A DNA stretch of 64,000 nt from an uncultured Chloroflexia bacterium (GTDB lineage: Bacteria; Chloroflexota; Limnocylindria; Limnocylindrales; CSP1-4). The first letter of the stretch is position 1, and each line of letters begins with the position of its first letter. Position numbers and translations under genes: made by a program. Of the stretch, positions 32,839 through 46,270 are shown in pieces. The notes beneath the pieces are model-generated. The model was not told where the DNA came from. It saw nothing but the letters and a program-made list of their open reading frames with translations, and made no database searches. The stretch is taken from assembly GCA_963734535.1 (NCBI GenBank), contig CAVTHS010000010.1, forward strand, positions 1 to 64,000, read 5' to 3'.

Positions 32839-33546
32839 TCACGTGAAGAGCGTCAGTTGATCGGTCTCGGATGGATGGGGTGTCGCGTCGGGCGGCTCCT
32901 CGGCGACGACTTCAGGTGGCGGTGGGGTTGCCCGAGCGCCGGCCCGGCGCTCGCGGAGCTGGCGCGCCTCGACCAGCGCGGCGGGGATCCGGGCCATGTC
33001 CGCGAAGCTGGTCGCCTCGACGGCCGCCGCCCGCAGCGCGGCCGCCGGATGGTACATGGCGAAGACGCGGGCATTGGCCGCGCCGGTCCCTGGATCGACG
33101 TCGCCGACGCTCCCGTGCGCCCGGCTGATCGTTGTTCCCGGCATGAACCGGCCCATCGAGTGCCGGCCGAGCGTCACCACGAGGGCGGGATCGAGCACCG
33201 CGAGCTGGCGCCGAAGGTACGGCGCGCAGGCCGCGACCTCGTCGGGCTCCGGATCCCGGTTGTCGGGCGGCCGGCACTTCACGACGTTCGTGATGAAGAC
33301 GTCGTCGCGCTGCCAGCCGATCGACCCGAGCAGGCGGACGAGCAGGTCACCCGCCCGCCCGACGAACGGCCGGCCCAGGCGATCCTCGTTCACGCCGGGG
33401 CCCTCGCCGACGAGCACCACCTCGGTCATCGGGTCTCCCTCGCCGGGCACGGCGTTCGTGCGGCCGGCATGGAGCCGGCAGGCAGTGCAGGCCCGAACCT
33501 CCGCCGCGATCGCATCGAGCGCCGCGCGGCGTTCGGGGTCCGTCAC
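32839..33546 (-). CDS. udg: Uracil-DNA glycosylase family 4
   Basis: CTACRL, GEGPG, PFVGRAG, KCRPP and YHPAA motifs; GTG start. Confidence 0.93.
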   Translation of the reverse strand: MTDPERRAALDAIAAEVRACTACRLHAGRTNAVPGEGDPMTEVVLVGEGPGVNEDRLGRPFVGRAGDLLVRLLGSIGWQRDDVFITNVVKCRPPDNRDPEPDEVAACAPYLRRQLAVLDPALVVTLGRHSMGRFMPGTTISRAHGSVGDVDPGTGAANARVFAMYHPAAALRAAAVEATSFADMARIPAALVEARQLRERRAGARATPPPPEVVAEEPPDATPHPSETDQLTLFT

Positions 33547-34625
33547 GCGGGCGTCTCCGCCTCCGCAGGCCGCGCGCGGCGCGATGCGGGCGCCACCCAA
33601 CCGCGCGCAACCAGCAGCTCGGCCAGCTCCACTGCGTTCGTCGCTGCGCCCTTGCGCACGTTGTCGGAGACGCACCAGAAGGCAAGGCCGCGCCCGTCGG
33701 GGATCGACGGGTCCTGCCGGACGCGACCGACGAAGACCTCGTCCCGGCCGGCCGCCTGGGTGGCGAGCGGGTAGATATGGGAGGCCGGCTCGTCGCGGAC
33801 GACCACGCCCGGCACGTCCGCGAAGAGCGCCCGGGCGGCCGCCGGTGTCACTCGCGCGCGCGTCTCGACGTGGACCGCCTCCGAATGCCCGACGAACACG
33901 GGGATGCGGACCGCCGTGCAGGAGAGGCGAAGGTCCGGCAGGTGGAGGATCTTGCGGCTCTCCGAGACGACCTTCCACTCCTCCTTCGTGTAGCCGTTGT
34001 CGAGGAACGTGTCGATCTCCGGCAGCGCGTTGAACGCGATCGGGTGCGGGTACACAGAGGCTTCCTTGGGAGCGCCCGCCGCGTGCGCGCGGATCTGGGT
34101 CTCCAGCTCCGCGATCGCGTCGGCGCCGGTGCCCGAGACGGCCTGGTAGGTGTCGACCACGACGCGCTCGAGGCCGGGACCGTCGCGCAGCGCCATCAGG
34201 AGGGGGACGAGCTGCATCGTGCTGCAGTTCGGGTTGGCGATGATCCCCTCGTGGGTCGCGAGGTCATCCGGGTTGACCTGGCTCACGACGAGCGGGATCC
34301 CCGCCTCCATCCGCCACGCGCTGGAGTTGTCGATCACCGCGCAGCCGCGTGCGACGGCCTGGGGCGCGAGCTCGCGGGAGACGTCCGCCCCGGCCGAGAA
34401 GAGCGCGATGTCGACGCCCTCGAACGCCTCCGGCGTCGCTTCCATCACCGCGACCGGGCGCCCGGCGACGGGGACCGTCATGCCGGCCGAGCGCCCGGAG
34501 GCGAGGAGCCGGAGCTCCGCCATCGGGAAGGCCCGCTCCAGCAGGACCGAGATCATCGTGCGGCCGACGACGCCGGTGGCGCCGACGACCGCGACCGTGA
34601 GGGGCCGGGGGGTCGTGAGGGACAT
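33543..34625 (-). CDS. asd: Aspartate-semialdehyde dehydrogenase
   Basis: GATGVVG, DNSSAWR, ANPNCST, YQAVSGTG and DNVRKGAA motifs. Confidence 0.97.
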   Translation of the reverse strand: MSLTTPRPLTVAVVGATGVVGRTMISVLLERAFPMAELRLLASGRSAGMTVPVAGRPVAVMEATPEAFEGVDIALFSAGADVSRELAPQAVARGCAVIDNSSAWRMEAGIPLVVSQVNPDDLATHEGIIANPNCSTMQLVPLLMALRDGPGLERVVVDTYQAVSGTGADAIAELETQIRAHAAGAPKEASVYPHPIAFNALPEIDTFLDNGYTKEEWKVVSESRKILHLPDLRLSCTAVRIPVFVGHSEAVHVETRARVTPAAARALFADVPGVVVRDEPASHIYPLATQAAGRDEVFVGRVRQDPSIPDGRGLAFWCVSDNVRKGAATNAVELAELLVARGWVAPASRRARPAEAETPA

Positions 34626-34664
34626 GGCTCCGCTGCTCGTGAATGGACTGGCGGGCACGGCGCG

Positions 34665-34673
34665 AGTATACCA
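34665..34673 (-). promoter_or_regulatory. Extended -10 promoter upstream of asd
   Basis: TGgTATACT on the minus strand about 40 nt upstream of the asd ATG. Confidence 0.55.
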
Positions 34674-34742
34674 GCGTGCCCCCGGTCTCCCGGGGGCACG
34701 CGATCGGCGATGCGGGCCGTCCGTGGACGAGCCCGTCGCTGG

Positions 34743-37322
34743 TCAGCTCTTGGCGAGATGCCGCTGCATGGCGGCCTTGCGGGACAGGTTGACCCGGCCC
34801 TGGCGATCGACCTCGGTCACCACGACCATCACCTCGTCACCGACCGAGACCACGTCCTCGACGGAGGGAACGTGATAGTCGGCCAGCTCGCCGATGCGGA
34901 CGAGGCCCTCCTTGCCGGGCAGGATCTCCACGAAAGCGCCGAAGGTCATGAGGCGGGTCACGGTGCCCAGGTACAGGGCGCCGATCTCGACCTCGCGGGT
35001 GAGGGACTCGATCCAGTTGATCGCCTTGCGGGCGTTCTCGCCGGAGACGGCGGCGATCTCGACGGTGCCGTCGTCCTCGACGTTGATCTCCGTGCCCGTC
35101 TCCTCCTGGATCTTCCGGATCATGGAGCCGCCCTTGCCGATGATCTCGCGGATCTTCTCCGGGTTGATCTTGATCTTCGTGATGCGCGGCGCGAAGTCGC
35201 TCATCGTGTCGCGGGCGGTCGGCAGGACTTCGAGCATCTTGTCGAGGATGCTCATCCGCGCGGCGTGGGCCTTCTCGAGCCCCTGCCGGATGATCGCCTC
35301 GCTGATGCCGGTCACCTTGATGTCCATCTGGAGGGCGGTGATCCCATCCCGGGTGCCGGTGACCTTGAAGTCCATGTCCCCGAACGCATCCTCCTTGCCG
35401 AGGATGTCGGTCAGGACCGTGAACGTCCCGTCCGCTTCCGACATGAGGCCCATCGCCGCGCCGGCGACCGGCGCCGTGATCGGGACGCCGGCGTCCATGA
35501 GCGCGAGCGTGGAGCCGCACGTGGACGCCATCGAGGTTGAGCCGTTGGACGTCACGCACTCGGAGACGAGGCGGATGACGTAGGGGAAGTCGTCCGAGCT
35601 GGGGAGCACCGGCAGGAGCGCCCGCTCCGCGAGGTGGCCGTGGCCGATCTCGCGCCGGCCGGGGCCCCGCATCATCTTGTTCTCGCCGGTGCTGTACGGC
35701 GGCATGTTGTAGTGGTGGATGTAGCGCTTCTCGGTCTCCGGGCTGATCGTGTCGATCCGCTGCACGTCGGAGGACGGCCCGAGGGTCGCGATCGTGAGGG
35801 CCTGCGTCTCGCCGCGCGTGAACAGGCCGGAGCCGTGCGCACGCGGGAGGACGCCAACCTCGACCGTGATCGTCCGGAGCTCGTCGACGCCGCGCCCGTC
35901 CATGCGGATCCCCTCGGAGAGGGTCAGCTTCCGGGCAGTCTTCTTGTGGACCAGGCCGAAGAGCGACTTCGAGACGCGGGCCGCTCGGCGGGCCGCCTCG
36001 AGCTTCGCCTTCGCGTCGTCCTTCGACGTGCGGCTGGCACGGATGGAGTCCGCGATCCCATCGGCCAGCGTCGTGAGGCGCCCCGGCAGCTCCGCGGCGA
36101 TCGCGAGGACGAGCGCTGCGGTGGCCTCCGCGTCGGGAAGCGCGCGGTGCGCCTGCTTCAGCTCGATGCCGAAGAAGCGCGAGAGCTCGCCCAGCGTGTA
36201 GCTGGGAAGGTCCGGGTAGCCGTCCCGGGCGAGCGTGAGCGTATCGAGATACGTGCCCGGGCGAACGCGCGTCCCGTCGGCGAGCGCAGCCTCGAGGAAC
36301 GCGATGTCGAACCCGACGGAGTGGCCGACCAGGGTCGCCTCGCCGACGAACGCGAGCGCCTGCCTGGCGGCGTCCGCGGGGCTGGGTGCACCGGCGACGT
36401 CCTTGTCCGTGATCCCGTGCATCTGGTTGCCGAAGATCGATCGGCCCGGGTTGACGAACGTGGACCAGCGGTCGGCGACCTTGCCCTTCTTGATCCGGAC
36501 CGCGGCGATCTCGACCAGGTCGGCCATCTCGGCGTTCGTGCCCGTCGTCTCGACATCAAGCACGACGAGCTCGGCGCCGGCCTTGACCTTCGCGGCGAAG
36601 TCCAGCACGGAGCCGGTGCCGGCCTCGAGGAACGGGATCCGCTTCGTCTTGCCGACGGCCTCCTGGAGCTGGAGCTGGATGTCGACGAGCGGCTGGAGGG
36701 CGCGGTGACCGAACAGGATGGCCTCGGCCATCACCGACTCGGACAGGATCTTGGCGCCCGCCTCGACCATCATGATCGCGTCGCGAGTGCCCGAGACGAT
36801 GAGGTCGAGGTCCGACTCGGCCAGCTCGGACATCGTGGGATTGATCACGAACTCGCCGTCGATCCGGCCGATGCGCACGGCTCCGATCGGGCCGAGGAAC
36901 GGGATCTCGCTGATGGTCAGCGCGGCGGACGCGGCGATGGTGCCGAGGACGTCCGGGTTGTTCTCCTGGTCGGTGGAGAGGACGGTGAGGACGACCTGGA
37001 CGTCGTCCTTGTAGCCCTCGGGGAAGAGCGGCCGGATGGGCCGGTCGGTCAGCCGCGCCGCCAGGATGGCGGCCTCCGAGGGCCGCGATTCGCGCTTGAT
37101 GAAGCCGCCGGGGATCTTGCCGGCCGCATACATCCGCTCCTCGAAGTCCACCGTGAGCGGGAAGAAGTCCAGGCCCGGGCGGGGCTCGGACCGGTTGGCG
37201 GTGCCGAGCAGGACCGTGTCGCCGTACGTGACGGTGACGGAACCACCGGCCAGGCGGGCGAGCTTGCCCGTCTCGATGGTGAGGGGGCGTCCGCCGAACT
37301 CGACGGAAAAGGTGAGGGACAC
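34743..37322 (-). CDS. pnp: Polyribonucleotide nucleotidyltransferase with an inserted DEDDh 3'-5' exonuclease domain (about 859 aa)
   Basis: PH1 (FFPLTVD, GKIPGGFIKRE, DRPIRPLF), DEDDh insert (DVETTG, HGIT, HSVGFD, HRALPD), PH2 (HYNMPPYSTGE, RREIGHG, SNGSTSMAS, GDMDFK), KH (IIGKGG) and S1 (FGAFVE). Downstream of rpsO. Confidence 0.96.
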   Translation of the reverse strand: MSLTFSVEFGGRPLTIETGKLARLAGGSVTVTYGDTVLLGTANRSEPRPGLDFFPLTVDFEERMYAAGKIPGGFIKRESRPSEAAILAARLTDRPIRPLFPEGYKDDVQVVLTVLSTDQENNPDVLGTIAASAALTISEIPFLGPIGAVRIGRIDGEFVINPTMSELAESDLDLIVSGTRDAIMMVEAGAKILSESVMAEAILFGHRALQPLVDIQLQLQEAVGKTKRIPFLEAGTGSVLDFAAKVKAGAELVVLDVETTGTNAEMADLVEIAAVRIKKGKVADRWSTFVNPGRSIFGNQMHGITDKDVAGAPSPADAARQALAFVGEATLVGHSVGFDIAFLEAALADGTRVRPGTYLDTLTLARDGYPDLPSYTLGELSRFFGIELKQAHRALPDAEATAALVLAIAAELPGRLTTLADGIADSIRASRTSKDDAKAKLEAARRAARVSKSLFGLVHKKTARKLTLSEGIRMDGRGVDELRTITVEVGVLPRAHGSGLFTRGETQALTIATLGPSSDVQRIDTISPETEKRYIHHYNMPPYSTGENKMMRGPGRREIGHGHLAERALLPVLPSSDDFPYVIRLVSECVTSNGSTSMASTCGSTLALMDAGVPITAPVAGAAMGLMSEADGTFTVLTDILGKEDAFGDMDFKVTGTRDGITALQMDIKVTGISEAIIRQGLEKAHAARMSILDKMLEVLPTARDTMSDFAPRITKIKINPEKIREIIGKGGSMIRKIQEETGTEINVEDDGTVEIAAVSGENARKAINWIESLTREVEIGALYLGTVTRLMTFGAFVEILPGKEGLVRIGELADYHVPSVEDVVSVGDEVMVVVTEVDRQGRVNLSRKAAMQRHLAKS

Positions 37323-37425
37323 GAGCGTTCCTTTCTCGCTCGCGTCGGGGATGGACCGCTGCCGGCGTTTCGCGCCGACCTCCGGATGCATGAGGCCGGG
37401 GCGTTACCCCGGTCTCAGCGGGTGC

Positions 37426-37695
37426 TCAGCGGCGCAGGCCGAGCCGTGCGATGACGGCGCGGTAGCGCGGCGCATCCTTCTTCACGAGGTACGCGAGAAG
37501 GCGCCGGCGCTGGCCGACCAGCTTGAGGAGGCCGCGGCGGGAGTGGTTGTCCTTGGGATACTGCCTGAGATGCCCCGTCAGATCCTTGACCCGCTCCGTG
37601 AGGAGCGCAATCTGGACCTCGGGGGATCCGGTATCGCCTTCCCTTGTCGCAAAGTCAGCGACGATCCGGTCCTTGGTTTCCCGCACGAGCGGCAC
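37426..37695 (-). CDS. rpsO: 30S ribosomal protein S15
   Basis: [13 protein letters not shown] and [20 protein letters not shown] motifs; GTG start after GGAGG. Confidence 0.97.
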
Positions 37696-37801
37696 TCGGT
37701 CCTCCGACACGAAAACTTGTACTAACCGTTCTTGCAAACGTGCGTACCGTAGCAGGGGCGGGCGGTTCCTGCAAACGCGGTCGGCCCCGACCCGCCCACC
37801 T

Positions 37802-38671
37802 TCAGGCCCATCGGACGAACGATACCCGCAGCCGACCGCCCGTCGGGGTCCCGTTCCTGGCGTCGACCCGGAGCGTTCCATCCGTGGACACGCGCACGAC
37901 CGCCCGGCTCGGGCGCGCCCGAGCGCTGCCGGGCGCGATCGCCGCCTCGAGCGTGGCCGCGTACGGCCCCGGCGGTGGGAGCGCGACCGGGACCTCGAAC
38001 GCCAGCGTCGCGCCCCGGCCGTCCATCGACCGATCGGCGATCTGGCCGGTGACCGCGACCCGCCGTCCAAGAAGCTCGCGGGCCGTCGCGAGGTCGCCCG
38101 TGGCGATCGCGGAACGGATCTCCGTGCTGCGCACCTGCCGCCCCCGGAGCTCGAATGGCGGGACGACCACGACCGAGAACCCGTCGCGATCGCCGAGCGC
38201 GGCGAGCGCCTGGGGCGTCCCGCGCCGTTCGTGGCCGAACGCCGCGTCCGGCGTCATCAGGAAGCCCGCCAGGCCGGTCCGCGACTCGATCGACGCGACG
38301 AAGGCGTCGTAGGGCGTCCGGCGGAGGGCTTCGTCGAAATGCTGAACGATTGTCACCTCGACGCCCGCCCGCGCCAGCCGGACCAGGCGCTCGACCGGAT
38401 CGCACAGGAGCGGCGGCGCGGCGCCCGCCATGATCTCGTCGGGGTGGTGATCGAACGTCAGCACGGCCGGGACGGCGCCCATGCGACCGGCGGCCCGGCG
38501 GAGCTCTCGCAGCAGGTAGGCATGCCCGCGGTGCAGCCCGTCGAAGACGCCCACGACGACCAGCAGCGGTCCGTGGCCCGGAAGGAGCGTGCTGACGCCG
38601 TGCAGCACCGACGATGGCCCGGTCGCGCGTCGGGCGACGGCCACCGGCAGCGAGGGAGCCTGCTCAGCCAC
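37802..38671 (-). CDS. ribF: FAD synthetase (RibF) with a degenerate riboflavin kinase domain
   Basis: [18 protein letters not shown] and RSTEIR adenylyltransferase motifs. Located between truB and rpsO. Start uncertain. Confidence 0.8.
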
Positions 38672-39794
38672 GAGGCGCGGCGGCGGCGCGCGGCACGAGC
38701 ACCTTGTCGGGCACGAGGCGGCCGCCGGCCCGCCGGGCGATCGCCGCCAGCGACCCGTCCTCGAGCACGAGCCGAACCCGGTCCGCACCCGCCGACGAGC
38801 CCGCAGCGGCCGAGGACATCGCGCCTGCCACCGGGCCGCCCGCCGGGATCCCGGACGGCGCCGGGAGCCGGCCGCCCTCCCCGATCCAGCCGCCGTGCGC
38901 GACCACGACGACCTCGTCCGGGCGGAGCGTGACGGCGGGAAGGTCGTCGAGGCCGGTGCCGACCGGGATGAGCAGGTCCGCGAAGCGCCCGCTTGCCGCG
39001 GCCTCGCGGGCCACGTCGAGGCTGATCGCGTCGTCGAGCGTGAACGGCCCCGCCGCGGTGCGGCGGAGCGCCCCGAGATACGCCGCGCTGCCGACCGCAG
39101 TCCCGAGATCGCGCGCGAGCGCCCGGACATAGGTGCCCGCGGAGCAGGCCACGTCGATGACCGCGAGCGGACGGTCCGGATCCGTCCCGTCCCACCGCTC
39201 CAGGGAGAGGGCGTGGAAGGTCGTCGCGCGAGCCGGCAGCTCCGGTGAGTGACCGGCCCTGGCAAGGGCGTACGCACGCCGCCCGCCGATCTTGCGCGCC
39301 GAGAACGCCGGCGGAAGCTGCAGGTGCGTCCCGAGGAAGCCTGCCAGGGCGGCCTCGACGACCTCCTGCGACGGGGCCGGCCCCTCGCTCGGCGTCAGCT
39401 CTCCCTCGAGGTCGTCGGTCGTCGACGACGCGCCGAAGCAGACGGTCGCCCGGTACGCCTTCCTGGCGCCGAGATGGAACTCCACGACCCGGGTCCCAAG
39501 GCCCAGGTAGAGCGGGAGGACTCCGGACGCGAACGGATCGAGGGTCCCGCCGTGGCCGATTCGCTTCGTCCCGGCGAGACGCCGCACGAGCGCGACGACG
39601 TCATGCGACGTCGGGCCGACCGGCTTGTCGACCACGAGGATGCCGTCGAGCCCGGCGTCGATCCGGCGCGGCCGCCGCTCACGCACAGGGTCGGCCGTCT
39701 GCGCCGGGTTCCCAGCGGCGGCGGGCAGCTCGTCCGTCATGGGCTCCTCGTCCGCGACTGGCTCCTCGTCCGTCCTGGACCCCCCGTCGCTCAT
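38664..39794 (-). CDS. truB: tRNA pseudouridine(55) synthase
   Basis: DKPVGPTSHD, GHGGTLDPFASG and CSAGTYVRAL motifs. Confidence 0.96.
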   Translation of the reverse strand: MSDGGSRTDEEPVADEEPMTDELPAAAGNPAQTADPVRERRPRRIDAGLDGILVVDKPVGPTSHDVVALVRRLAGTKRIGHGGTLDPFASGVLPLYLGLGTRVVEFHLGARKAYRATVCFGASSTTDDLEGELTPSEGPAPSQEVVEAALAGFLGTHLQLPPAFSARKIGGRRAYALARAGHSPELPARATTFHALSLERWDGTDPDRPLAVIDVACSAGTYVRALARDLGTAVGSAAYLGALRRTAAGPFTLDDAISLDVAREAAASGRFADLLIPVGTGLDDLPAVTLRPDEVVVVAHGGWIGEGGRLPAPSGIPAGGPVAGAMSSAAAGSSAGADRVRLVLEDGSLAAIARRAGGRLVPDKVLVPRAAAAPRG

Positions 39795-40810
39795 CTCGCC
39801 ACGGCCCGGGCGAAGCGGATTGCCACCGGGAGGACGACGGCCGCGGCGTCGGCGAGCGGGAGGTCGACCGACGCGCCCGCGGCCCGGGCATGCCCGCCGC
39901 CCCCCCACGTTCCACACAGCGCAGTGGCGTCCACGCCGCCGGGCTTCGTCCGCACGGAGACCCGCGTCGCGTTGTCCTTCTCCTTGAGCAGCAACGCCAC
40001 CTCGGCCGTCTCCGACTGGGCGAGCAGGTCGATGATCCCCTCGGAGTGCTCCGAGCCCGCCCCGGTCGCGACCAGGTCGGCCAGCTCCATCGTCGACGCG
40101 ATCACGAGCCCGTCGGCGTGGGACTGGAGCCGCCCCAGGACGCGTCCGAAGAGCGCGAGCTGGGCATCCGGCTTCGTGCGGTAGAGACGCCGGCTGATCT
40201 CGGAGAGTGGCGCCCCCGCCTCCACGAGCGCGGCCGAGACCTGGAGGGTGCGGGGCGTCGCGTTCGGGTGGGCGAAGGTGGCCGTGTCCATCACGATCCC
40301 GGCCATCAGCGCCGCGGCGAGCCGTCCCTTCCCCAGCGTCAGGGGCACGCCGAGCCGGGTGGCGAGCAGCGCGACCATCTCGCAGGTTGCCGCAGCGCTC
40401 GCGTCGATCCAGACGAGGTCACCGGACGCGGCGTTGCTGGCGTGATGGTCGATCGTGAGGACCGGCGTGGCGGCAAACAGCGCGGCGTTCCGGTCGCGGA
40501 TCGCGCCCACACGCGACAGGTCGCCGCAGTCGCACAGGACCACCAGGTCATAGGCGGCGTCCGGCTCCGGGTCCGTCCGGACCGCGTCGGTGCCCTCGAG
40601 GAACCGGTACAGCTCCGGCACCGCATCCGACGCGGCGACGGTCGCCCGCCCGCCGCGGGCGTCGACGATGAGGCCGATGGCGATGGCGGCGCCCAGCGCG
40701 TCCGCGTCCGGGCTCTCGTGGCCGATGGCGAGCACGCGGCGTGCCCCGCGCAGGCGCTCTACCACTGCGTCTGGAACCGCCGTCGCGAGCGGTCGCAGGT
40801 CGATGCGCAT
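39791..40810 (-). CDS. nrnA: DHH/DHHA1 phosphoesterase (NrnA-like nanoRNase/pAp phosphatase)
   Basis: HESPDADALG, IDHH, DTATF and GGGH motifs. Located between rbfA and truB. Confidence 0.88.
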   Translation of the reverse strand: MRIDLRPLATAVPDAVVERLRGARRVLAIGHESPDADALGAAIAIGLIVDARGGRATVAASDAVPELYRFLEGTDAVRTDPEPDAAYDLVVLCDCGDLSRVGAIRDRNAALFAATPVLTIDHHASNAASGDLVWIDASAAATCEMVALLATRLGVPLTLGKGRLAAALMAGIVMDTATFAHPNATPRTLQVSAALVEAGAPLSEISRRLYRTKPDAQLALFGRVLGRLQSHADGLVIASTMELADLVATGAGSEHSEGIIDLLAQSETAEVALLLKEKDNATRVSVRTKPGGVDATALCGTWGGGGHARAAGASVDLPLADAAAVVLPVAIRFARAVAR

Positions 40811-43257: not shown

Positions 43258-43571
43258 CAGGCCCCTCCTTCTTGGTCAACGTGGTTCGGCATCGGGGGTG
43301 TCGGGGCTCCGGCCCTGAACGGGTCGAAGAGCCCGGGCGGAATCGGGACGGCGAGCGCACGCCGCAGCGTGCCCTTCGCCATCGCGAGGTCGTGGCACGC
43401 GGGATCGACGCACACGTAGGCGCCGCGACCAGGCGCTCGTCCGGTCGCATCGAGCGCGATCGTGCCGCCCGGCGTCCGCACCACCCGCAGCAGCTCGCGC
43501 TTCGGACGAGCCGTCCGGCAGGCGACGCAGGTCCGGGTCGGGTGCTGTCGCGGAGGCGGGCCGCCGCCCAC
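43257..43571 (-). CDS. ylxR: YlxR/RnpM family RNA-binding protein
   Basis: [15 protein letters not shown] and GRGAYVC motifs; located between nusA and infB. Start approximate. Confidence 0.88.
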
Positions 43572-43579
43572 GCGCCCCG

Positions 43580-44761
43580 CTACGGTGTCACCTCCGCGGT
43601 CGGAAGGGCCGCCGGAACGTCCGCGTTCGCGGGGGCGCCCTCGTCCGCGACGTCGGCGGCGGGTGACGGCTCGGCGGCGGGAGCGGCCGGCACGGGCGCA
43701 GCAGCCCCAGGGACCGGCGCGACTGCCTCCGGCGCCTGCACGTCGCTGCGGATGTCGATCCGCCAGCCGGTCATCTTCGCGGCGAGTCGCGCGTTCTGCC
43801 CTTCGCGCCCGATGGCGAGCGAGAGCATCTTCTCGGGGACGATGACGCTCGCGATCCGGTGCTCCTCGTCGATGTGGACGGCCACGACCTGCGCCGGGCT
43901 GAGCGCCTTCGCGACGAAGACGGCCGGGTCCTCGTGCCATTCGATCACGTCGATCTTCTCGCCGGCGAGCTCGGCCACGACGGCCTGGACGCGGGCGCCA
44001 CGCTGTCCCACCGTCGCGCCGACGGGGTCGAGGCCCTCCTGGCGCGAGGCCACCGCGACCTTCGAGCGGCTGCCCGGCTCGCGGGCGATCGCCTTGATCT
44101 CGACGGTCCCGGCGTGGATCTCGGGGACCTCGAGCTCGAAGAGCCGGCGAAGGAACCCCTTGTGCGTGCGGCTGACGAGCACCTGCGGGCCCTTCGGGCC
44201 GCGGCGCACCTCCAGCACGAACGCCTTGACGTTCTGGCCGATCCGGTAGTGCTCCACCGGCGACTGCTCGGTGGTCGCGAGGATCGCCTCCGCCTTCCCG
44301 AGGTCGAGGATGATCGCCCGCGGCTCGACCCGGTTGACGGTCCCGGTGATGAGGTCGCCCTCGCGGCTCGCGAACTGGTCGTAGACGACGTCGCGCTCGG
44401 CCTCGCGCAGGCGCTGCAGGACGACCTGCTTCGCCGTCTGCGCACCGATCCGCCCGAATGCATCCTGGCCCAGCTGCTCGGTGACGACCTCCTCGCCGAT
44501 CTCGGCATCGGGCTTGATCGCCCGGGCCTCGTCGAGGGTCAGCTCGGTGAGTGGATCCTCCACGTCCGCGACGACGAGGCGTTCGCGGGTCACGAGCATC
44601 TCGCCGCGCTCCGGGTCGATCCGGACGCGGACGTCCTCGTTGCCGGGGATCCGGCGGTAGGCCGACTCGATGGCGTCGGAGATCGTCAGGACGAGGTGCT
44701 CCCGGGGAACGCCCTTCTCGGCGTTGAGCTGGAGGAGGGCGCCCACGAAGTCGCGGCTCAT
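43580..44761 (-). CDS. nusA: Transcription termination/antitermination factor NusA
   Basis: FGRIGAQTAKQV, ELEVPEI, AREPGSRSK and LSLAIGREGQNARLA motifs. Confidence 0.97.
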   Translation of the reverse strand: MSRDFVGALLQLNAEKGVPREHLVLTISDAIESAYRRIPGNEDVRVRIDPERGEMLVTRERLVVADVEDPLTELTLDEARAIKPDAEIGEEVVTEQLGQDAFGRIGAQTAKQVVLQRLREAERDVVYDQFASREGDLITGTVNRVEPRAIILDLGKAEAILATTEQSPVEHYRIGQNVKAFVLEVRRGPKGPQVLVSRTHKGFLRRLFELEVPEIHAGTVEIKAIAREPGSRSKVAVASRQEGLDPVGATVGQRGARVQAVVAELAGEKIDVIEWHEDPAVFVAKALSPAQVVAVHIDEEHRIASVIVPEKMLSLAIGREGQNARLAAKMTGWRIDIRSDVQAPEAVAPVPGAAAPVPAAPAAEPSPAADVADEGAPANADVPAALPTAEVTP

Positions 44762-44815
44762 GCGGTCCACCTCTCACACTCGTGTTCGACCGACGGCGGC
44801 CGTCCCGGCCGACCG

Positions 44816-44878
44816 AAAGAAAAACGTGGGGGTCACCCACGTCATGGAGCGGCGCGGTCGAAGTTGCACCGGAGTATA
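44816..44878 (-). promoter_or_regulatory. nusA operon leader: -10 box plus intrinsic terminator/attenuator (rimP-leader-like)
   Basis: TATACT (44873-44878), then ACGTGGG-TGACC-CCCACGT hairpin followed by TTTTCTTT on the minus strand. Confidence 0.7.
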
Positions 44879-44995
44879 CCCCACGCGCGCCGTGCCTCCC
44901 CGCCGCGCCGCGTGACCCCTGCCGGTGCGTCGATGCAACGGCGTGGCGCGCGGACGCACCGCCTGCCGGCGGGCGGGCGATCGTACGGCGTCCGG

Positions 44996-46270
44996 CTACG
45001 CGATTGGCGAGGTCGCCCCGACCCCTGTCGGGACGCTGCCCGGGGTCGGGTAGCGCCGCTCCACGTACTCCTCGAGCAGCCCGATGAAGCGGGCCACGAT
45101 GTCGTCGCCGCGGTACGTGGCGTAGAGCTTGCCGTCGACGAAGACCGGCGCCACGGGCTCCTCGAAGGTGCCGGGGAGGCTGATCCCGATGTCGGCATGC
45201 TTGCTCTCGCCCGGCCCGTTGACCACGCAGCCCATGACGGCGACCCGCAGCTCCTCGACACCGGGGTGGAGCTCCCGCCAGGCGGGCATGCGTTCCTTGA
45301 GGTGGGCGGTGATGTCGCGGGCCATCTCCTGGAAGAAGACCGACGTCGTGCGCCCGCAGCCCGGGCAGGCGCTCACCTGGGGCATGAAGCTGCGCAGGCC
45401 GAGTGATTGCAGGACCTGCTGGGCGACCTCCACCTCGAGCTCGCGGCCTGCGCCGGGCTCGGGCGTCAGGGAGACGCGGATCGTGTCGCCGATCCCCTCG
45501 GACAGGAGGACGCTCAGGCCAGCCGTCGAAGCGACGATCCCCTTCATGCCCATGCCGGCCTCCGTGAGGCCGAGGTGGAGCGGGTAGTCGCACTGCGCCG
45601 CGAGCCGCCGGTAGACGTCCACGAGGTCGCGCACGCCCGACACCTTCGCGCTCACGATGATCCGGTCGTGGCCCAGCCCGGTCTCCTCGGCCAGCTCGGC
45701 GGAGCGGAGCGCCGAGGCCAGCATGGCGTCGATCATCACGTCCCGGCTGTCACGCGGCGCGGCGAGGGCCGCGTTCGCCTCCATCATCGACGTCAGGAGA
45801 GCCGGGTCCAGCGAGCCCCAGTTGACGCCGATCCGGACAGGCCGGTCGTGCTCGATGGCGACTCGCACGATCGTCTGAAAGTTGTCGTCGTGACGCTTCG
45901 CGCCGACGTTGCCCGGGTTGATGCGGTACTTCGCCAGCGCTCGGGCGGCCTCCGGATGGTCCACGAGGAGCTGGTGCCCGTTGTAGTGGAAGTCGCCGAC
46001 GATGGGGGTCTCGAAGCCGAGGTCGCGGACCTTGCGCACCATCTCGGGCACCGCGGCCGCGGCCGCCTCGGTGTTGACGGTCACCCGGACGAGCTGCGAC
46101 CCGGCCGCCGCAAGCCGGACGACCTGGAGCGCGGTCGCATCGGCGTCCGCCGTGTCCGTGTTCGTCATGGACTGGACGACCACTGGGTGGGCGCTCCCCA
46201 CGAGCACGCCGCCCACGTCCACCGACGGCGTGGCTCGCCGGGGCGGGCGCAGGGCGTCCGCGCCGGTCAC
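44996..46270 (-). CDS. ispG: (E)-4-hydroxy-3-methylbut-2-enyl-diphosphate synthase
   Basis: [33 protein letters not shown] and [10 protein letters not shown] motifs. Confidence 0.96.

Follow-up and report, generated by a model that had tools for sequence, protein, structure and literature searches.

A pnp gene with an in-frame exonuclease domain

The stretch of DNA analysed here (the window; 64,000 nucleotides (nt), i.e., positions 1 to 64,000 of contig CAVTHS010000010.1 in assembly GCA_963734535.1 of an uncultured Chloroflexia bacterium) carries on its reverse strand a pnp gene, encoding polynucleotide phosphorylase (PNPase), in which a DEDDh-type exonuclease domain is embedded in frame. The open reading frame concerned (34743..37391, reverse strand) offers an upstream candidate start, ATG 37391, next to GTG 37322. 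Because a Shine-Dalgarno sequence (AAGGA/GGAGG) located 6–9 nt before GTG 37322 is kept in 6/6 aligned relatives, and ATG 37391 shows no conservation among them, GTG 37322 is likely the start codon. Translation from this codon yields a protein of 859 amino acids (aa) with zero internal stops, in agreement with an earlier note on this DNA, made from its letters alone, which had described a single-frame pnp product of about 859 aa with a DEDDh domain between the first and second RNase PH domains (PH1 and PH2).

A Pfam search with the 859-aa protein returned two RNase_PH domains (4.7e-54) and two RNase_PH_C domains, followed by C-terminal KH and S1 domains, i.e., the domain set of a PNPase. The corresponding NCBIfam equivalog model (TIGR03591) scored 937.9 bits (cut-off of 525) in two stretches, with the insert lying between them. 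The profile PF00929 (RNase_T) was found between the RNase_PH domains, where the earlier note had expected it, and covered residues 253–404 (nt 36111–36566, within 36090–36580) with positions 1–163 of its 164, at an E-value of 1.1e-26 and 94.7 bits (cut-off of 24). The motifs of the DEDDh family are all present, i.e., DxE (Exo I), D (Exo II), and Hx4D (Exo III), and the residues D256, E258, H302-G303, D339, H392, and D397 had all been numbered correctly from the start. The PH2 motifs, KH, and S1 had moreover been described as intact, which is borne out by Pfam and by an alignment of 43 sequences in which R556, R557, G560-G562, N593-S600, D645, D649, D651, and K653 of PH2 are invariant. We take these to be the phosphate- and metal-binding catalytic motifs of PNPase.

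The unfused PNPases of sister families are 736–737 aa long, so that the net gain of the fusion (ca. 122 aa) is smaller than its DEDDh domain (ca. 155 aa). This difference arises because the region between the flanking anchors was remodelled: from the GKxK anchor (around residue 228) to IRxDGR (residue 473), about 120 residues in the unfused proteins became 245 in the fused one. The earlier size of about 160 aa for the insert therefore fits the domain itself, but not the length added to the protein. Coordinates of all features are collected in Table 1.

Table 1. Domains and catalytic codons of the pnp fusion gene, and neighbouring genes, in window coordinates.
Feature	Position	Strand	Basis or remark
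pnp, 859-aa PNPase-DEDDh fusion	34743..37322	-	GTG 37322, stop codon 34743-34745
PH1 (RNase PH + RNase_PH_C), residues 1-230	36633..37322	-	Pfam; invariant columns
FFRR-type aperture loop G72-E78, inside PH1	within 36633..37322	-	invariant columns
N-terminal linker and first helix of helical domain, residues 231-249	36576..36632	-	model helix 237-247
DEDDh 3'-5' exonuclease domain, residues 250-405	36108..36575	-	PF00929, conservation, model
Catalytic codon D256	36555-36557	-	Exo I
Catalytic codon E258	36549-36551	-	Exo I
Catalytic codon D339	36306-36308	-	Exo II
Catalytic codon H392	36147-36149	-	Exo III
Catalytic codon D397	36132-36134	-	Exo III
Helical bundle after insert, residues 406-470	35913..36107	-	models and alignment to unfused PNPases
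PH2, catalytic RNase PH domain, residues 471-700	35223..35912	-	Pfam, NCBIfam, invariant motifs
KH domain (KH_1), residues 715-772	35007..35180	-	PF00013, 2.4e-12
S1 domain, residues 778-849	34776..34991	-	PF00575, 6.8e-18
rpsO (ribosomal protein S15), immediately upstream of pnp	37429..37710	-	PF00312, 3.3e-34
truB	38667-39917		gene string with pnp
DHH/DHHA1 protein, 339 aa, NrnA-like candidate nanoRNase	39794..40810	-	between rbfA and truB
rbfA	40813-41349		gene string with pnp
asd	33546-34658		after pnp in gene string
Family-4-type uracil-DNA glycosylase (UDG)	about 32842-33600		two genes downstream of pnp

The fusion is not an artefact of assembly or gene calling

Such a gene could also result from a chimeric assembly or bin, or from a faulty gene call, and the metagenome-assembled genome from which the window stems has 7.1% contamination. 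However, the GC content is uniform along the pnp gene, and a sample of 41 genomes of relatives contained full-length, stop-free matches to the fusion within the genus (87–99% identity). Full-length matches were also obtained from a second family of the same order, with genomes of 1.0–1.4 Mb (68–71% identity). In this sample, a few of the fusion genes are broken up by frameshifts or truncated where a contig ends. Among the matches listed by a search of 5.8 billion proteins, 120/120 clusters carry PF00929 together with PF01138, and the fusions are mostly 859–864 aa long and situated on contigs of up to 2.6 Mb.

The junctions between insert and PNPase, whose coverage the earlier note had named as a check, are bridged by DNA contigs from two studies and by contigs from RNA libraries. 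A DNA contig of 999 nt (X1; 35733–36731, 5 differences), possibly from the same sample as the window's assembly, spans both junctions, and a DNA contig of 593 nt from another study (X3; 36267–36859) spans the PH1-side junction. The RNA-library contigs X17 (covering 35743–36438 and 36526–36726) and X15 (36418–36644) attest to the presence of the sequence without proving its transcription. The junction support consists of bridging pieces, no single contig extending over the whole 1301-nt stretch. Along with this bridging and the even composition, the recurrence of the same architecture in over 200 genomes from three families, on contigs up to megabase length, and the congruent trees of insert and PNPase core (see below) refute an artefact, to which we attach practically no weight.

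Fold and nearest relatives of the insert

Structure models were obtained for the full-length protein (predicted local distance difference test (pLDDT) of 81.9, predicted template modelling score (pTM) of 0.74) and for the insert with its surroundings (residues 232–474; pLDDT of 95.3, pTM of 0.90). Both agree on a helix at residues 237–247, followed by an alpha/beta DEDDh core, and the insert model has the RNase H-like alpha/beta fold that goes with this family. The Exo III helix extends as a 36-residue helix (394–429) and is followed by helices 434–448 and 452–470; in the models, this helical bundle after the insert seems to be what is left of the helical domain of PNPase. Within the alpha-helical linker that connects PH1 to PH2, the insertion point follows the first helix. 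Foldseek searches with the full-length model returned PNPases as top matches (E-values down to 6.8e-67).

As for the insert alone, its model superimposes best on the PolC exonuclease (Z-score of 22.4, root-mean-square deviation of 1.9 over 176 aligned residues) and on Staphylococcus aureus DinG in complex with single-stranded DNA (ssDNA) (8zef/9ii8; Z-score of 22.0, Foldseek 2.1e-12), followed by epsilon (20.8), RNase T (17.8), and REXO2 (13.4). The ranking by sequence against the PDB is similar, i.e., PolC (2.5e-24), DinG (2.3e-15), epsilon (4e-9), and RNase T (1.1e-5), and the NCBIfam models matched by the insert itself are DEDD-exonuclease, DinG, and PolC models. The epsilon equivalog TIGR01406 stays far below its cut-off (77.4 vs. 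222.7 bits), and only TIGR00573, a broad subfamily-domain model, narrowly clears its threshold (72.4 vs. 71.5 bits). The protein is not a DinG, since its Pfam matches include no helicase domain and its exonuclease domain alone is DinG-like, nor is the insert of the RNase T or Orn type, given that PolC and DinG are closer by both sequence and fold. Rrp6 and RNase D form the DEDDy branch of the superfamily; their profile PF01612 is absent from the Pfam matches, and the insert has His392 rather than Tyr in Exo III. By these comparisons of sequence and fold, the insert is specifically DinG/PolC-like.

Conservation, selection and descent of the insert

In a panel of 26 fused sequences, with inserts down to 31% pairwise identity, D256, E258, T259, T260, H302, G303, H334, D339, and H392 are invariant, and D397 is kept in 25/26. 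The panel member that deviates is the fusion gene of genome G147 (L034; G147:C71, 1023–3611 on the forward strand), in which a His is found at this position and the other four catalytic residues are intact. The ratio of nonsynonymous to synonymous substitution rates (dN/dS; NG86, median over 12 pairs) is 0.13 for the DEDDh domain, vs. 0.14 for PH1, 0.11 for PH2, and 0.08 for KH-S1, and rises to 0.31 in the N-terminal linker and 0.29 in the helices after the insert. The insert is under purifying selection at the same level as the PH domains, and this conservation supports the in-frame fusion with intact catalytic residues that had been proposed at the outset.

Some fused representatives in the 50% library seemed divergent or decayed (P0149, P0158, P0177, P0201, P0213, P0252, P0161, P0171, and P0154). 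They were rejected as such, being frameshifted gene calls in which the motifs alternate with Arg/Pro-rich text that looks out of frame. Such entries inflate the apparent diversity of the fusion and could be mistaken for degenerate domains.

Separate trees of the insert and of the PNPase core, another check named in the earlier note, turned out to be congruent. In a tree of 139 DEDDh domains, all PNPase inserts fall in one clade (Shimodaira–Hasegawa-like approximate likelihood-ratio test (SH-aLRT) support of 97) of 35 rows, of which 31 have PH flanks and the other 4 are fragments lacking them. Designating five families within the window's class of Chloroflexota as f1–f5, this clade splits into f4 (100) and f1+f2 (99). 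The core tree, built from the C-terminal half of PNPase without the insert and rooted on 25 PNPases taken from the phylum's other families, recovers the class (89), within which unfused f3+f5 (99) are sister to fused (f4,(f1+f2)) (99). Because both trees agree, the inserts go back to one ancient insertion on the stem of the three fused families, followed by vertical descent.

Distribution across the Chloroflexota

When 301 genomes of the class were scanned with a 211-aa insert as query (E ≤ 1e-10), strong matches were obtained in 91/91 f1, 12/12 f2, and 99/103 f4 genomes, and among the matches listed for these families the frames are about 710–1270 aa long, except for that of G185 (429 aa). 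Families f3 and f5 gave weak matches alone (85/92 and 2/2 genomes, respectively; 1e-15 to 1e-31), and the PNPases of three f3 genomes and one f5 genome, examined in full, are ordinary proteins of 736–737 aa. A fused-type insert (65% identity, E-value of 3.7e-84) was also encountered in G283, an f3-labelled genome with 79% completeness and 6% contamination, within a 501-aa frame on a short contig (G283:C380:263-892). The insert may have entered this bin by contamination, or G283 may truly depart from the pattern of its family.

At the level of the phylum (401 genomes, scanned with a 281-aa query spanning the junction), end-to-end matches were confined to f1 (23/23), f2 (4/4), and f4 (16/16), and the fusion was not found in the other families sampled with this query. 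Matches elsewhere comprised the DEDDh core alone (query positions ca. 50–215), mostly in frames of about 930 aa. A scan of 1.84 billion representative proteins with the insert yielded 54 proteins at E ≤ 1e-30. The best scorers are mostly fragments or full-length forms of the PNPase-DEDDh fusion, with P0147, P0151, P0165, P0166, P0169, and P0174 as other DEDDh proteins among them, and the next-ranked matches are DnaQ-BRCT, DinG-type, PolC, and PHP-linked exonucleases. No independent fusion from outside the clade was present among the best 150 of the 27,815 matches. In the ESM Atlas, three clusters combine PF01138 with PF00929, all of them mainly Chloroflexota. The architecture consequently marks a clade, consisting of f1, f2, and f4 and belonging to a group of Chloroflexota from soil and freshwater, which settles what the earlier note had proposed to look up.

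Some genomes are flagged as unpublished. The class-scan tally includes G122, G274, G131, G191, G157, G319, G140, G126, G146, and G102, the PF00929 census described below includes G122, G319, and G157, the phylum scan includes G630, and G359 also entered a tally; these genomes contributed zero sequences to the alignments, trees, or folds.

A reciprocal pattern with DinG

PF00929 matches were counted in 121 genomes of the class (i.e., 120 with at least 90% completeness, plus the window's genome at 89.94%). Exactly one match was present in 38/45 f1, 44/49 f4, 16/21 f3, and 1/1 f5 genomes, so that genomes of the class as a rule have a single DEDDh domain. In 4/5 genomes of f2, a family with small genomes, there is a second, standalone DEDDh gene (open frame of 206–246 aa), seen in G027, G028, G029, and as locus L050 (G025:C2, 436–978 on the forward strand; 181 aa from its first start), the latter placed apart from the inserts on a branch of length 2.16. 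In the window's genome (3.2 Mb, ca. 90% complete) the pnp insert is the only PF00929 match, and with this profile search no separate dnaQ-type gene was therefore found. Replicative proofreading would then have to depend on a different domain, for instance PHP.

The single DEDDh domain of f3 and f5 genomes is the N-terminus of a DinG-type protein of 892–1038 aa (PF00929, DEAD, Helicase_C_2). The DinG helicase part is present in 21/21 f3 and 1/1 f5 genomes, vs. 1/44 in f1 (35% identity within a 2041-aa frame), 0/5 in f2, and 1/49 in f4 (a 107-aa frame at a contig end), and the single f1 and f4 matches are weak and look unrelated. The window's genome gave zero matches to PF13307 and zero to the DinG helicase part. 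Between the insert and the DinG exonuclease domain of an unfused genome (G041) there is 47% identity. An approximately unbiased (AU) test was run on 55 rows, i.e., 13/13 near neighbours, 12/35 inserts, 4 DinG domains, and every third other row. A clade uniting the inserts with the DinG exonucleases of the class was not rejected (p-AU of 0.61), the constrained tree being 4.9 log-likelihood units better than that of a free quick search. Because DinG holds the only DEDDh domain of the sister families, and the fused families are without DinG, the exonuclease domain of DinG may have been relocated into pnp with subsequent loss of the helicase, a scenario to which we would give even odds.

The RNB domain of RNase II/R was not found in G000 (the window's genome), G025, G041, G043, G044, and G052 (87–97% complete; the controls did match). 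Complementarity with RNase II/R was rejected as an explanation of the fusion: RNB was not found in 5/5 tested genomes, fused and unfused alike, so that its absence does not track the fusion and cannot by itself account for it. PNPase may be the main processive 3′–5′ exoribonuclease of the whole class.

Gene neighbourhood

The pnp gene sits at its usual place after rpsO, as had been noted earlier and as the PF00312 match confirms, within the gene order ylxR-infB-rbfA-DHH-truB-ribF-rpsO-pnp, followed by asd and then by the UDG gene. The DHH/DHHA1 gene is located four genes upstream of pnp. A promoter and terminator scan of 34300–38200 detected none. A GC-rich hairpin (CCGGGG-loop-CCCCGG, 37396–37412, reverse strand) is situated 14 nt past the rpsO stop codon, and was missed by the terminator scan because it is without a T-run. 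Its 5′ arm is invariant in 6/6 relatives and its 3′ arm recognisable in 4/6 (not in L026 and L030). It may serve as a terminator or attenuator of rpsO or as a processing site for pnp control. Further along, 43260–45593 (reverse strand) constitutes a 778-aa open frame in which the sole domain seen is a C-terminal YlxR domain (residues 687–757); its long N-terminal part is probably an over-extension in GC-rich DNA.

Proposed function of the fusion

Since the in-frame fusion is real, and purifying selection has kept its catalytic residues intact, a dual phosphorolytic/hydrolytic nuclease, as the earlier note had suggested, is the natural reading. The clade-wide fusion, its full and selected set of catalytic residues, the single origin, and the reciprocal pattern with DinG stand as observations, and activity, substrates, geometry, and hand-off are inferred. 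The protein is a genuine, vertically inherited PNPase variant. With the DEDDh domain inserted into the linker, each protomer has, besides the usual phosphorolytic site (PH2), the full residue set of a hydrolytic two-metal site (D256, E258, D339, H392, and D397). We consider it highly probable that the DEDDh site works as an exonuclease. For the mechanism as a whole, i.e., the architecture, the origin, and a 3′-end nuclease with two chemistries, we would put the probability at roughly 0.55.

As to its origin, the N-terminal exonuclease of the lineage's own DinG would have entered pnp on the stem of the fused families, and the DinG helicase would then have been lost. The trimer would contain three phosphorolytic sites in its channel and, on its opposite face, three DEDDh sites that act by hydrolysis. 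In the accessible text of PMC2723993, the helical domain of PNPase is placed on that side of the torus which faces away from S1/KH, where it forms the wall of a side pore leading to the active site. Because of this placement, the DEDDh sites probably decorate the 'exit' face, i.e., the ring face opposite KH/S1, where they would lie beside the side pore of the PH2 site. The same text regards this pore as serving the exchange of nucleoside diphosphates (NDP) and phosphate, not RNA entry (Nurmohamed et al. 2009, PMC2723993).

The DEDDh sites may act as 3′–5′ exo(ribo)nucleases independent of ATP and phosphate, on 3′ ends too short or too structured for the channel, such as unprocessed rRNA trailers, and possibly also on RNA in RNA-DNA hybrids and on ssDNA tails. 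PH2 would processively remove long single-stranded RNA, and substrates would presumably be handed between both sites. According to the part of PMC12774634 available to us, DinG of Listeria monocytogenes is a dual 3′–5′ RNase/DNase that selectively degrades unprocessed rRNA in vivo and keeps its exonuclease activity when its DEAH (ATPase) motif is mutated, and that study proposes that decay is completed by RNase R and PNPase. The fusion would thus join the 'initiator' role of a Firmicute DinG to the 'finisher' role of PNPase.

Several points weigh against this mechanism. With regard to activity and substrate, the closest solved relatives of the insert are DNA enzymes, L. monocytogenes DinG favours DNA in vitro (in the accessible text of PMC12774634), the choice between RNA and DNA is not readable from the sequence, and one panel member (that of G147) has a His at position 397. 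With regard to origin, the sister relation of insert and DinG amounts to non-rejection by the AU test, for a group chosen after viewing the 139-row tree, and in the free 139-row tree the group enclosing both is a polytomy with an SH-aLRT support of 82. Moreover, a fused-type insert lies in a short frame of the f3-labelled G283 (6% contamination), and 5/5 further genomes tested from the class, unfused ones included, likewise gave no RNase II/R.

A more far-reaching possibility, which we regard as tentative and rather unlikely, is that the fusion is a single-polypeptide bacterial counterpart of the exosome, in which RNA is handed between the channel and the exit-face sites, and which would replace DinG plus RNase R in the quality control of rRNA and the decay of structured RNA. 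The hand-off may in that case proceed via the channel, via the side pore, or by direct access. Because its DEDDh domain is the sole one of the genome, such an enzyme would also serve in DNA 3′-end and R-loop processing.

Among the alternatives to the two-chemistry mechanism, a role on the DNA side fares best, albeit as a doubtful one. The DEDDh domain would then act on ssDNA 3′ tails, during R-loop or replication stress, or even in proofreading-like editing, with PNPase mainly as a scaffold. Its nearest relatives are the exonucleases of PolC, DinG, and epsilon, the insert is the sole PF00929 domain in the window's genome (as in most f1 and f4 genomes), and the UDG gene two genes downstream lends weak support. 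In the accessible part of PMC12525004, Bacillus subtilis DinG degrades ssDNA in the 3′–5′ direction, removes R-loops, and cleaves ssRNA with Mn only, and PNPase is named there, with reference to Cardenas et al. 2009, among the 3′–5′ exonucleases that can act on 3′ tails of DNA. As far as the text at hand of each paper goes, Escherichia coli PNPase has been implicated in recombination and repair (PMC5379764) and human PNPase in R-loop homeostasis (PMC12430004). However, the host protein is an RNA machine whose KH, S1, and PH2 are intact and under strong constraint, and the gene stays in a string for translation and ribosome biogenesis (infB-rbfA-truB-rpsO-pnp). The in vivo targets of the Listeria DinG exonuclease are moreover rRNA precursors (PMC12774634, in its accessible part), and a DNA role overlaps with the two-chemistry mechanism if the enzyme is dual-specific. 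The argument in the earlier note that epsilon-like motifs favour DNA is unsafe, considering that the DinG proteins of Listeria and B. subtilis are described as dual RNase/DNases that target RNA in vivo in what is accessible of PMC12774634 and PMC12525004.

It is improbable that the insert is chiefly a finisher of nanoRNA, degrading the 2–5-nt limit products of PH2 as Orn or NrnA would. The DEDDh family does include Orn and REXO2, the latter recovered as a structural match at the lower Z-score of 13.4, and no second, Orn-type DEDDh gene is present in the window's genome. Moreover, the pore lined by the helical domain may let small molecules reach and leave the PH2 site, as proposed in PMC2723993 (in the text accessible). 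Yet, the insert is of the DinG/PolC rather than the Orn type, and the DHH/DHHA1 NrnA-like gene in the same gene string weakens this function, which the earlier note had also considered. The unfused sisters manage without an insert, their only DEDDh domain being in DinG, and the reciprocal DinG pattern would be left unexplained.

Very improbable, finally, is a non-catalytic insert (a nucleic-acid-binding, regulatory, or docking module, or one that is merely tolerated): many DEDD folds have turned into binding modules, Maelstrom and Exuperantia-type folds occur among the structural matches, and one panel sequence has H replacing D397, but four catalytic residues are kept in 26/26 and the fifth in 25/26 sequences across inserts down to 31% identity, dN/dS (0.13) is level with that of the catalytic PH domains, and the seemingly decayed representatives are frameshifted gene calls.

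Comparison with known systems

To our knowledge, PNPase is among the best-studied enzymes of RNA decay, and the same domain plan is generally taken to hold throughout. A full-text search (without subscription journals or supplements) found no published description of a DEDD or DnaQ-like domain within a PNPase, in line with the earlier note, which knew of none. In public annotation, NCBI lists such proteins as 'polyribonucleotide nucleotidyltransferase', whereas JGI has 'DNA polymerase III epsilon subunit family exonuclease', and because each label names one half of the protein, plain PNPase or epsilon-family exonuclease, the architecture has gone unremarked in databases. Both domains belong to textbook families, and what appears to be new is their combination.

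The fusion constitutes a clade-wide, selected exception to the PNPase plan that adds a putative second nuclease chemistry to the ring, and the clean exchange with DinG in the course of evolution makes it more valuable. A natural experiment is provided by the sister families, which have kept this exonuclease domain attached to a DinG helicase. The contrast between fused and unfused families bears on the purpose of DinG-type exonucleases (RNA quality control or DNA repair), on the dispensability of the DinG helicase, and on whether coupling hydrolysis with phosphorolysis favours the decay of structured or short-tailed RNA where RNase II/R is missing.

Canonical PNPase (E. coli, Caulobacter crescentus, Streptomyces antibioticus; ca. 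700 aa) has the same PH1-helical-PH2-KH-S1 order, and the likeness extends to the equivalog-level score, the invariant PH2 motifs, the position after rpsO, and the Foldseek match (6.8e-67). What the fusion adds is the DEDDh domain (ca. 155 aa, net ca. 122 aa) in the helical domain, and thereby a second, putatively hydrolytic site per protomer. Firmicute-type DinG (S. aureus, L. monocytogenes, B. subtilis), composed of an N-terminal DEDDh exonuclease and an XPD-like helicase, has an exonuclease that is among the closest to the insert by sequence, fold, and tree. In the fusion, however, the carrier is PNPase, the domain is internal rather than N-terminal, and the helicase was not found in the window's genome. 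The proofreading domain of PolC is the best PDB sequence match of the insert (E-value of 2.5e-24) and is itself a DEDDh domain inserted inside another domain. Unlike PolC and epsilon, the fusion is without polymerase context, and it reaches 77 of the 223 bits set for the epsilon equivalog.

With the eukaryotic exosome and its Rrp6/Rrp44, the fusion shares the logic of pairing a PH ring with a hydrolytic exonuclease, although the partners are separate polypeptides there and the PH ring of the exosome is catalytically inert. PH2 of the fusion, by contrast, looks active, and the insert would lie on the face opposite the S1/KH cap (going by the accessible text of PMC2723993), so that the analogy with Rrp6 drawn in the earlier note holds for function and not for position. 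In the Caulobacter degradosome, as described in the part of PMC4245959 available to us, RNase D is likewise recruited beside PNPase as a separate polypeptide, vs. the single chain encoded here.

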